Shown here piece after piece: positions 27,501-30,500 of a DNA stretch of 64,000 nt (position 1 is the first letter of the stretch; the number at the start of each line of letters is the position of its first letter). The position numbers were made by a program. Where the stretch lies: the NCBI RefSeq assembly GCF_054482595.1, contig NZ_CM137008.1; one strand, written 5' to 3'.

Positions 27501-30500
27501 CGCAACAGTTGGTAGATATCATTACGCGCCGAGACATCCACGCCGCGCGTCGGCTCATCGACAATCAATACTTGCGGCGAGGCTTCCAGGCATTTGGCAA
27601 TCAGGATTTTTTGCTGGTTGCCACCGGATAATGTCCGTGCAGCTTGTTCCGGTTGGTTAAATTTAATATTCAGCGCCCGACGATATCGTTCCAGGGTGGC
27701 ATTATCTTTCGCGGTTTTCGCCCAGAATCCACGAAGGTTATGAGTAAGGGCGCAGACGTTCCACGCCAGTGAAGCATCGAGATTCAGTCCGGATGACTGG
27801 CGATCTTCCGGCAGATAAACCAGACCGCGCAGTAAACGTTCTCCGGTGGATAATCTATTGATCTCTTTACCATTCAGCATAATGCTTCCGCCACGCAAAG
27901 TACGCAGACCATAGAGCGTCTCGGCCAGTTCTGTGCGTCCGGCTCCCACCAGCCCAGCCAGGCCCAGAATTTCTCCGGCATTGAGCGTCAGGCTGACATT
28001 CCTGAAACCTTCGCCGGTCAGATATTCCAGTGTCAGCACCGGCGTTCCGGCGGCATGTTGTGGGCGGTTGCCAGGTAATTCCAGCCATAATTTTTGGCTG
28101 GCAGAGAGCGATTTTTCCCGTATCGCTGGCGTAATGGCCTGAATAATGTCATCGGTAGACAGTTCGCTGGTTTTGCCGCTTAAGGCGATGGTTCCGTCGC
28201 GCATCACGCTAATTCGATCGGCAATCTGGCGAATTTCCGGCAGCTTATGCGAGATAAAAACAATACCCACGCCAGTAGCAAGCAGCTCTTGCAAGCGACG
28301 AAACAAGCGTTCGGTTTCGGCAGGGGTAAGCGAGGCTGTAGGTTCATCGAGGATCAGAATCCGCGAGTCGCGCATCAGGCCGCGGAGGATTTCCACCATT
28401 TGGCGATCGGCAACATCCAGCGATCCTGCCAGACTATGCAGATCAAACTGGCAGCCCAGCGCCGCCAGCAAGTTATTCATTTTCTGTATGGAGAGTTGTT
28501 TTTTTGCCAGCCCAAACAGAATGTTTTCTTTTATCGACAGGCTTGGAAAAAGCAGCGGTTCCTGGGGAACGAGATAAATGCCCAACTGATGAGCATGAAC
28601 TGGCGTTAATCTGGTGTAATTATTGCCCCCAATCTCCAGCGTACCGCTATCAGCAGGGGTAATACCGGCAATAATCTTCATTAACGTCGATTTACCGGCA
28701 CCATTGCCGCCGAGCAGGGCGTGGACCTCCCCCTGATGCAACGTAAAATCGATGCCTTTCAGGACATTAACCCCTGAATACTGTTTATAAACCGAGCGGG
28801 CGCAAAGTAGCGGTAAGGCGCGGGTATCACTCGTTTGCATATTTCCCCCGTTCAGTTTTGCAGGTGAGTTTTGAACAAATGTATTTCTGCTTTTAATTTG
28901 TTCATAACCTTAGGTGGACATTGCACATATTTCCGACGAATAGATCACAATTTATGCTATTTTGATTTTCACGGTTGCGTTTGTTCATGCTCGTAGAGTC
29001 AAACTGTGGTTGCCATCACAGATATAAATGCGCAAGAACTGAACAATTGCATTAAAGATTTAAGTATGTTCAAAGTGAAGAATGAATTATGACAATCAAC
29101 GATTCGGTAATTTCAGAACAGGGAATGTGTGAAGAAGAACAGGTCGCGCGGATCGCGTGGTTTTACTATCACGACGGGCTGACCCAGAGTGAGATCAGCG
29201 ATCGTCTCGGCCTGACCCGTTTGAAAGTGTCGCGATTACTGGAGAAAGGGCATCAATCCGGCATTATTCGCGTACAGATTAATTCTCGCTTTGAAGGCTG
29301 TCTGGAATATGAAACACAATTACGTCGTCAGTTTTCGCTGCAACATGTCCGGGTGATCCCAGGGCTTGCGGATGCTGATGTCGGCGGGCGACTAGGGATA
29401 GGCGCGGCGCATATGTTGATGAGTTTACTTCAACCACAACAGATGCTGGCGATTGGTTTTGGCGAGGCAACCATGAATACGCTGCAACGCTTAAGTGGTT
29501 TTATTTCGTCACAGCAAATTCGCCTGGTCACGCTCTCCGGTGGCGTCGGTTCTTATATGACGGGTATCGGACAGCTTAACGCGGCGTGCAGTGTGAATAT
29601 TATTCCGGCCCCGTTGCGGGCATCCTCCGCTGACATTGCTCGTACGCTAAAAAATGAAAATTGCGTCAAAGATGTTCTGTTAGCCGCGCAAGCAGCGGAT
29701 GTGGCGATTGTCGGCATTGGGGCCGTGAGTCAACAAGACGACGCGACAATCATTCGCTCCGGTTATATCAGCCAGGGCGAACAGTTAATGATTGGCCGAA
29801 AAGGGGCGGTTGGCGACATTTTAGGCTACTTTTTTGATGCGAAAGGTGACGTTGTCACGGATATCAAAATACATAACGAACTGATTGGCTTACCTTTAAG
29901 CGCGCTGAAGACCATACCCGTCCGGGTTGGCGTGGCAGGGGGAGAAAATAAAGCCGAAGCAATTGCCGCTGCAATGAAAGGCGGTTATATCAACGCACTG
30001 GTTACCGATCAGGACACAGCAGCGGCGATTTTACGTAGTTAAATTTGCATGACCTTATTACCGGGAATGATGGAGAACGTATAGAGGAACAGACAGAACG
30101 CATAAGCCGAGGATAATCTAATGGCTCGACTCTTTACCCCTTCAGAATCAAAGTACTACCTGATGGCGCTGGATGCAGGCACCGGAAGTATTCGGGCTGT
30201 GATATTCGACCTGGAAGGCAATCAAATAGCAGTGGGACAGGCGGAGTGGCGGCATCTGGCAGTACCGGACGTTCCTGGTTCTATGGAATTTGATCTCAAC
30301 AAAAACTGGCAACTGGCGTGTGAGTGTATGCGCCAGGCGTTGCACAACGCCGGCATAGCCCCGGAGTATATCGCTGCCGTTTCGGCATGTTCGATGCGTG
30401 AAGGCATTGTTTTATATAACAATGAAGGAACACCGATCTGGGCCTGCGCCAATGTGGATGCCAGAGCGGCGCGCGAAGTTAGCGAACTTAAAGAACTGCA

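Follow-up and report, generated by a model that had tools for sequence, protein, structure and literature searches.

The motif TGTGG-N6-TCACA that lies between lsrA and lsrR in the window (the whole stretch of 64,000 nucleotides that was analysed) is very probably a genuine cAMP-CRP site, namely the one catalogued as CRP II in the control region that the divergent genes lsrA and lsrR share. This site, its regulator and its physiological meaning are already known for E. coli K-12, and the sole mildly new elements presented here are the argument by which CRP II is assigned to one of the two promoters and a decayed box in the middle of the region.

The lsr locus of E. coli is contained in the window, in the orientation opposite to that of K-12, and the genes around it are found in the usual order: mar, ydeA, uxaB, yneE, tam, lsrGFBDCA / lsrRK, an autotransporter pseudogene, and hipBA. 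The lsr genes bordering the region of interest were identified by their NCBIfam matches:

24257-25279, minus strand: lsrB (equivalog match far over the curated cut-off)
25291-26283, minus strand: lsrD (equivalog match far over the curated cut-off)
26283-27311, minus strand: lsrC (equivalog match far over the curated cut-off)
27305-28840, minus strand: lsrA, with which lsrACDBFG begins (NF011967, 952.5 bits, cut-off 586)
29089-30042, plus strand: lsrR, coding for a SorC-family repressor (NF011947, 619.9 bits, cut-off 486)
30121-31713, plus strand: lsrK, the next gene after lsrR (NF008187, 1001.5 bits)

The gap between lsrA (minus strand) and lsrR (plus strand) extends from 28841 to 29088 and measures exactly 248 bp. 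A 701-bp stretch across it is 100% identical in several complete E. coli genomes in which RefSeq annotates lsrA and lsrR, and 246 of the 248 positions of the gap are identical to those of MG1655. The two differences (an A of MG1655 being C in the window at 29031 and G at 29064) fall outside the CRP sites, the one at 29064 being located inside one of the LsrR operators (box R, see below), just after AAGATTTAA. The G+C content of the gap is 35.1%, as compared with 51-53% in the flanking genes, so the rest of the region is AT-rich as the sequence-only reading had described it; with the gap two bases away from K-12 and CRP II listed in RegulonDB, the locus is also as well described as that reading had held. 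A scan of the gap for consensus promoters and terminators returned no terminator and no hexamer pair at threshold, the latter being in keeping with weak, activator-dependent promoters without locating them, and an Rfam scan of the gap returned no RNA family. A repeat search detected two short direct repeats, CATATTTCC (at 28838 and 28926) and TTTGTTCAT (at 28897 and 28980), which are probably due to chance or part of the arms of the operator boxes; the second one pointed to the central box described below.

Two CRP sites are located in the gap:

28934-28949, minus strand: CRP I, reading TGTGATCTATTCGTCG along the lsrA strand and listed by RegulonDB as activating lsrACDBFG from -71.5
29005-29020 (22-mer at 29002-29023), no strand assigned: CRP II, with the 16-bp core TGTGGTTGCCATCACA, identified by sequence, matrix, RegulonDB, and conservation

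CRP II reads TGTGG (29005-29009), TTGCCA (29010-29015), and TCACA (29016-29020), and the coordinates proposed for it from the sequence were correct to the base. Allowing for up to one mismatch, TGTGG-N6-TCACA matched the 64 kb five times against 1.9 matches expected, the expectation per 248 bp being about 0.0075. Scoring was carried out with a matrix made from 279 SELEX-chip boxes (Shimada 2011 Table S3, PMC3105977), rendered symmetric and from which the lsr site had been excluded. CRP II scored 12.34 bits, which exceeds 60.6% of the 279 training sites (median 10.97), and ranked sixth among the 63,985 positions of the window (iid p = 2.3e-5 per position). The sequence-only reading had staked the site on a matrix scan and was prepared to give it up at a score below threshold; a score above the median of known boxes speaks for keeping it. 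Four of the five window sites that outscored CRP II correspond to K-12 SELEX-chip boxes of the same neighbourhood (upstream of ydeA, between uxaB and yneE, and between ydeN and ydeO), and the matrix therefore behaves sensibly. A 2026 survey of lsr CRP sites used a FIMO cut-off of p<6.1e-5 (bioRxiv 10.64898/2026.06.09.730415), and the p-value of CRP II lies under it, although the two values come from different matrices. By these results, CRP II fits the CRP matrix as well as known sites do.

The identity of the site was established by comparison with the catalogues. RegulonDB, as reproduced in Shimada 2011 Table S4 (PMC3105977), lists two CRP activator sites for lsrACDBFG-tam, at -142.5 and -71.5. 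The former, gctcatttatATCTGTGATGGCAACCACAGTTtgactctacg, is the reverse complement of window positions 29002-29023, and the latter, AATTGTGATCTATTCGTCGGAA, corresponds to window positions 28931-28952 with its core at 28934-28949 (PMC3105977). In the same study, genomic SELEX-chip revealed binding of CRP in vitro between lsrRK and lsrACDBFG, and this peak was assigned the motif TGTGATGGCAACCACA, which is the CRP II 16-mer (Shimada 2011 Table S3, PMC3105977), at a resolution too coarse to tell CRP I from CRP II. The order of elements in the gap has been given as p-lsrR box, CRPII, CRPI, and p-lsrA box (Hauk 2016, PMC5137460), and this order, taken together with the RegulonDB positions, identifies the flagged motif as the CRPII of that work. 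The comparison with characterised lsr promoters that the sequence-only reading had suggested thus leads to the K-12 site at -142.5. Both CRP sites of the K-12 lsrACDBFG-tam promoter, as 16-mers and as 22-mers, are the same in the window, without any difference in the sites themselves, and the order of the elements (box R, CRPII, CRPI, box A) is also the same. Being a RegulonDB activator site and the motif under a SELEX-chip peak (PMC3105977), CRP II is consistent with the cAMP-CRP dependence of lsr expression, with which it had been connected from the outset.

Conservation of the region was analysed in about 20 enterobacterial and metagenomic lineages. A scan for LsrR in species-representative genomes yielded 25 enterobacterial loci, belonging to Escherichia, Citrobacter, Izhakiella, Kluyvera, the uncultured Enterobacteriaceae UBA5654, Superficieibacter, a Serratia-labelled isolate, Mangrovibacter, Edwardsiella, and Buttiauxella. 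The lsrA-lsrR gap measured 248-251 bp in all these loci except those of Buttiauxella, and a 15-sequence alignment of the gap consisted of conserved blocks with free sequence between them. At CRP II, column identity in this alignment was 94% in the left half, 100% in the right half, and 42% in the spacer (gap mean 72%), and the spacer occurred as TTGCCA, TGGCTA, GTTTAA, CCCGGA, CGCAGG, TATATG, or CTATAA. The centre of the site lay 75.5-78.5 bp before the lsrR ATG in the species-representative loci. Further lineages of the same layout, with an LsrR identity of 74-85%, came from scanning metagenome contigs for DNA patterns; in them, the site scored 10.0-15.2 bits and was centred 71.5-76.5 bp ahead of the ATG of lsrR. 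Overall, most lineages other than E. coli carry a CRP II site of 8.9-15.2 bits, centred 71.5-78.5 bp before the lsrR ATG. The exceptions are Kluyvera-type lineages and most Buttiauxella, in which the site has decayed to 4-5 bits, and it is therefore not indispensable everywhere. With both halves under constraint, the spacer free to vary, and the position kept, CRP II looks in the alignments like a functional dimer-binding site. Selection on the non-consensus G of TGTGG, which is invariant in the first 15 sequences, was also considered and rejected, as A, C, or T occurs there in metagenome lineages.

This pattern bears on the suspicion that CRP II might be a functionless near-consensus sequence that arose by chance in AT-rich DNA, CRP control being exerted via CRP I alone. 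Such an origin would be helped by the fact that a one-mismatch consensus is expected about twice per 64 kb and that 283 of 20,000 dinucleotide-preserving shuffles of the gap (1.4%) reached 12.34 bits. However, chance would hardly keep the halves 94-100% conserved at a fixed position with a varying spacer, down to an LsrR identity of 74%, nor place under a CRP SELEX-chip peak a motif identical to this 16-mer, and we regard this explanation as extremely improbable.

CRP I has a single good half, TGTGATC, and scored 2.69 bits with the same matrix. Since 89% of the gap shuffles did as well, the matrix alone cannot support this site, and the case for CRP I rests on its listing in RegulonDB, on the conserved TGTGATC half (GATCAC at 28943-28948), which does not vary among the 15 aligned sequences and can still be recognised in Buttiauxella, and on its class I distance from the lsrA start. 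CRP I, whose distance to the lsrA start is a standard one for activation, had been overlooked in the sequence-only reading.

The operators of LsrR, which that reading had expected somewhere in the gap, are accounted for by two 33-bp boxes:

28872-28904, no strand assigned: LsrR operator box A, TGAACAAATGTATTTCTGCTTTTAATTTGTTCA, found through repeat families D1 and I1, at about -2 to -34 of the lsrA promoter
29040-29072, no strand assigned: LsrR operator box R, TGAACAATTGCATTAAAGATTTAAGTATGTTCA, found through the repeat search, the position given in Hauk 2016, and the box matrix

In the repeat search, both boxes appeared as 33-nt copies that are 73% alike and 168 bp apart from start to start, each of them being an imperfect palindrome TGAACA-N21-TGTTCA. 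A box matrix was derived from the two known LsrR boxes and applied leaving one genus out at a time. With it, box A scored 27.9 bits, a value reached at none of 11,792 flanking positions, and box R scored 29.5 bits. Their arms are invariant across all genera and their middles are free. Box R contains AACAAT (29042-29047), TGCATTA (29048-29054, i.e., -208 to -214), and AAGATTTAA (29055-29063). Counted from the lsrA ATG, the p-lsrR box has been located between -237 and -197, corresponding to 29037-29077, and the elements AACAAT and AAGATTTAA were credited there to Xue 2009 (Hauk 2016, PMC5137460); in the window, the elements of box R occupy exactly the offsets given for the p-lsrR box, so that both the position and the signature of this LsrR operator are recovered. 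As box A spans the lsrA promoter from about -2 to -34, LsrR bound to it would exclude RNA polymerase.

To decide which promoter CRP II serves, its distance to both transcription starts was considered:

28870, minus strand: implied lsrA start, by arithmetic on the literature positions in RegulonDB
29082, plus strand: reported lsrR 5' end (Kim 2012 dataset, 3 reads, 7-nt leader)

The site centres at 28941.5 (-71.5) and 29012.5 (-142.5) both give an lsrA +1 at 28870, two bases beyond box A. The lsrR 5' end was reported at position 1599272 of NC_000913.2, and the upstream sequence printed with it matches the window (Kim 2012, PMC3415461). Its leader of 7 nt is devoid of a ribosome-binding site, and it may not be the true start; applying to box R the rule observed for lsrA and box A, the lsrR start would be predicted at about 29074. 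CRP II is centred at -61.5 from this predicted start and at -69.5 from the 5' end at 29082. In class I CRP-dependent promoters, the centre of the site is near -61.5, -71.5, -82.5, or -92.5. With respect to the lsrA start, CRP I (-71.5) is at an allowed class I distance and CRP II (-142.5) is too far away. Since CRP II lies at a class I-type distance from either candidate lsrR start and not from the lsrA start, it would chiefly serve lsrRK. In our inference, the main role of CRP II is class I-type activation of lsrRK; for lsrA it would be a distal helper, with CRP I as the proximal site. That the stronger and better conserved CRP site appears to have its class I-type spacing to lsrR, and not to lsrA, is unrecorded in databases, and the sequence-only reading had likewise overlooked that CRP II is nearer the lsrR promoter than the lsrA promoter. 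Against this assignment, the 2011 reproduction of RegulonDB attributes both sites to lsrACDBFG and none to lsrRK, and the sole lsrR 5' end found consists of 3 reads whose leader has no ribosome-binding site.

The RegulonDB listing of both sites as activators of lsrACDBFG-tam, with none for lsrRK, would be explained if CRP II acted on lsrACDBFG alone, in tandem with CRP I and upstream of it in a class III-like arrangement, the dependence of lsrR on CRP being then indirect or through another site. A strong nearby site could also help to recruit CRP to CRP I, which is poor on its own (2.69 bits). We consider this arrangement unlikely, because a centre at -142.5 exceeds the usual reach of direct contact between CRP and the polymerase, a distance of 71 bp, or about 6.8 helical turns, puts the two CRP centres on different faces of the helix, and the distance of CRP II to the lsrR start codon is fixed across genera; moreover, the model of a 2026 preprint has CRP directly activating lsrR too (10.64898/2026.06.09.730415). 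The effect on lsrR would be the opposite if this gene were read from the TATAAA at 29023-29028, which shares 5 of its 6 bases with the -10 consensus and is partly conserved as TAT(A/T)A: CRP II would then cover the -35 region and the spacer and repress lsrR. Such a start disagrees with the reported 5' end at 29082 and would leave box R, the autorepression operator, wholly downstream of it, and the literature model has CRP activating lsrR (10.64898/2026.06.09.730415); repression by CRP II is accordingly judged highly improbable. It is also a possibility that CRP II is a class II site (-41.5) of an lsrR promoter having AACAAT (29042-29047) as its -10, a geometry that fits; a start beyond box R is nevertheless the one favoured by the reported 5' end at 29082 and by what is seen at lsrA.

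Another conceivable role for the two CRP sites involves a proposed half-site for CytR:

28920-28927, minus strand: TGTGCAAT, proposed CytR half-site (Hauk 2016, PMC5137460), a sequence present in the window

The CRP sites would then constitute a platform for a CytR-type anti-activator, CRP II mainly anchoring a repressing CRP-CytR-CRP complex. G-to-A changes in TGTGCAAT, which adjoins CRP I, do raise the strength of the lsr promoter (Hauk 2016, PMC5137460). Nevertheless, the proposal derives from a single motif score of 0.74, and TGTGCAAT lies outside the interval between CRP I and CRP II. At deoP2 the spacing is roughly 53 bp, which differs from the 71 bp found between the CRP sites here. None of the analyses made on the window lent support to this role, and it appears very unlikely.

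In addition to boxes A and R, a third element related to them was detected in the centre of the gap:

28955-28987, no strand assigned: decayed central LsrR-type box, TGCTATTTTGATTTTCACGGTTGCGTTTGTTCA, recognised by homology to full boxes in other genera

Counted from start to start, the central box lies 83 bp from box A and 85 bp from box R, either distance amounting to about eight helical turns, and one CRP site is located in each of the flanking intervals. In E. coli it retains only the TGTTCA arm and a TG at offset 9-10, and with the box matrix it scored -3.0 bits, compared with 28-30 bits for the known boxes, one of the 11,792 flanking positions being as high. The element is similarly weak in Citrobacter (1.0 bits) and Superficieibacter (1.4 bits). 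The corresponding scores were 23.5 bits in Kluyvera, 25.8 in the Serratia-labelled isolate H1w, 19.3 in Edwardsiella, 17.3 in UBA5654, and 15.0 in Mangrovibacter, and in these five genera none of about 13,000 flanking positions scored as high. By pattern match, three metagenome lineages (L036, L091, and L128) carry all three boxes in full at steps of 81-83 bp, and a fourth one (L105) has box A and a full central box 83 bp apart. Comparison of these sequences makes a three-operator ancestral design plausible, and we tentatively propose, as something possible but well short of probable, that the ancestral lsr region had three LsrR boxes 83 bp apart, with CRP sites flanking the middle one, which decayed in E. 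coli and Citrobacter. LsrR is a SorC-family tetramer, and members of this family engage two half-operators per tetramer (PMC11229326). If the three-box design is true, LsrR tetramers could bridge operators, enclosing CRP or competing with it, and the decay of the middle box in E. coli and Citrobacter would loosen repression. No mention of a third LsrR box was found in the accessible literature, and the central box may be a new observation.

The organisation of the region resembles that of other systems. As in malE/malK, fucA/fucP, and araC/araBAD, an AT-rich gap is shared by back-to-back promoters with CRP sites between them and the gene of a local regulator alongside, and several such gaps of divergent sugar regulons appear in the same SELEX-chip table (PMC3105977). 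Unlike those regulons, lsr is governed by a SorC-family tetrameric repressor that responds to phospho-AI-2 and has its operators over both promoter cores. The three-box lsr regions of other genera are reminiscent of the lac operon with its LacI operators O1, O2, and O3, in that a tetrameric repressor, operators in helical phase, and CRP between them are common to both; in contrast to lac, looping by LsrR is hypothetical, the boxes have a length of 33 bp and a spacing of 83 bp, and the middle one is decayed in E. coli. With DeoR and CggR of Bacillus subtilis, SorC proteins that bind DNA as tetramers, LsrR shares its fold and its dimer-of-dimers assembly, the tetramer engaging two half-operators (PMC11229326). 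A difference is that, to our knowledge, no LsrR-DNA structure exists.

The expression of lsr requires cAMP-CRP, and LsrR represses it until freed by phospho-AI-2; deletion of crp abolishes lsr expression (Plsr-gfp) even in an lsrR deletion strain, and both lsrA and lsrR are activated by CRP in the model proposed (10.64898/2026.06.09.730415). In the mechanism that we envisage, cAMP would rise in the absence of preferred sugars, and CRP would occupy CRP II and the weaker CRP I 71 bp away, where it would be needed to activate two weak back-to-back promoters. LsrR bound to the 33-bp box over each promoter core would keep both of them blocked, until phospho-AI-2, the product of LsrK, released it. 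As the gap is nearly identical to that of K-12, the discovery value of the site is small, and its recovery from raw sequence at the exact coordinates constitutes a clean positive control. The conserved middle LsrR box of other genera could interest engineers of lsr promoters as quorum-sensing switches. For the bacterium, control by CRP would mean that the uptake of AI-2 is switched on only once preferred sugars are gone.

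Comparison of the 248-bp gap between lsrA and lsrR (28841-29088) with that of K-12 MG1655 revealed only two differences:

29031, C for A, between the lsr CRP site CRP II (29005-29020) and the lsrR-proximal LsrR operator (box R, 29040-29072)
29064, G for A, within box R, immediately after AAGATTTAA

The gap was present in 4178 of the 5426 complete E. coli genomes, so that approximately 23% do not carry it, and three plasmid-borne copies were detected in these genomes. When the window was scanned with the CRP matrix built from 279 SELEX-chip boxes (Shimada 2011, PMC3105977), five matches (13.4-16.0 bits) outscored the lsr site (12.34 bits):

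9693-9708, in or adjoining marB; resembles a SELEX box listed in K-12 at a different locus
12883-12898, upstream of ydeA; corresponds to a K-12 SELEX-chip box
21256-21271, in the uxaB-yneE gap; corresponds to a K-12 SELEX-chip box
51235-51250, ydeN-ydeO; corresponds to a K-12 SELEX-chip box
51449-51464, also above the lsr site in score

The window contains a single Rfam match, a full-length one to STnc560, an Hfq-binding sRNA, at 639-852 on the plus strand; it scores 281.9 bits, and the gathering score is 55. Downstream of lsrK the following feature was located:

32244-37665, plus strand, two neighbouring long ORFs of 1354 and 442 aa

This ORF pair corresponds to a frameshifted autotransporter pseudogene of the ECSE_1600 family (yneO in K-12), and it is followed by hipBA.

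Halfway between the two known LsrR operators of the window lies a decayed third LsrR-type box (28955-28987). A full box was found at the homologous place in Kluyvera, Serratia H1w, Edwardsiella, Mangrovibacter, UBA5654 and several metagenome lineages, located 83 bp from either neighbouring box. This middle box is absent from the gap of the Buttiauxella loci (L018-L024), which is shorter (about 213 bp; e.g., 2788-3000 in L023). These loci have an intact lsrA-proximal operator (box A); box R is changed in both of its arms and stops 4 bp short of the lsrR ATG, and the left half of CRP II is decayed (TGCCG).

The lsr control region of Izhakiella australiensis (L010) was nearly identical to those of three Citrobacter loci (L005, L007 and L013). 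Since Izhakiella belongs to a different family, this sequence near-identity suggests that its lsr locus may have been acquired by recent horizontal transfer, or that the contig may be mislabelled.
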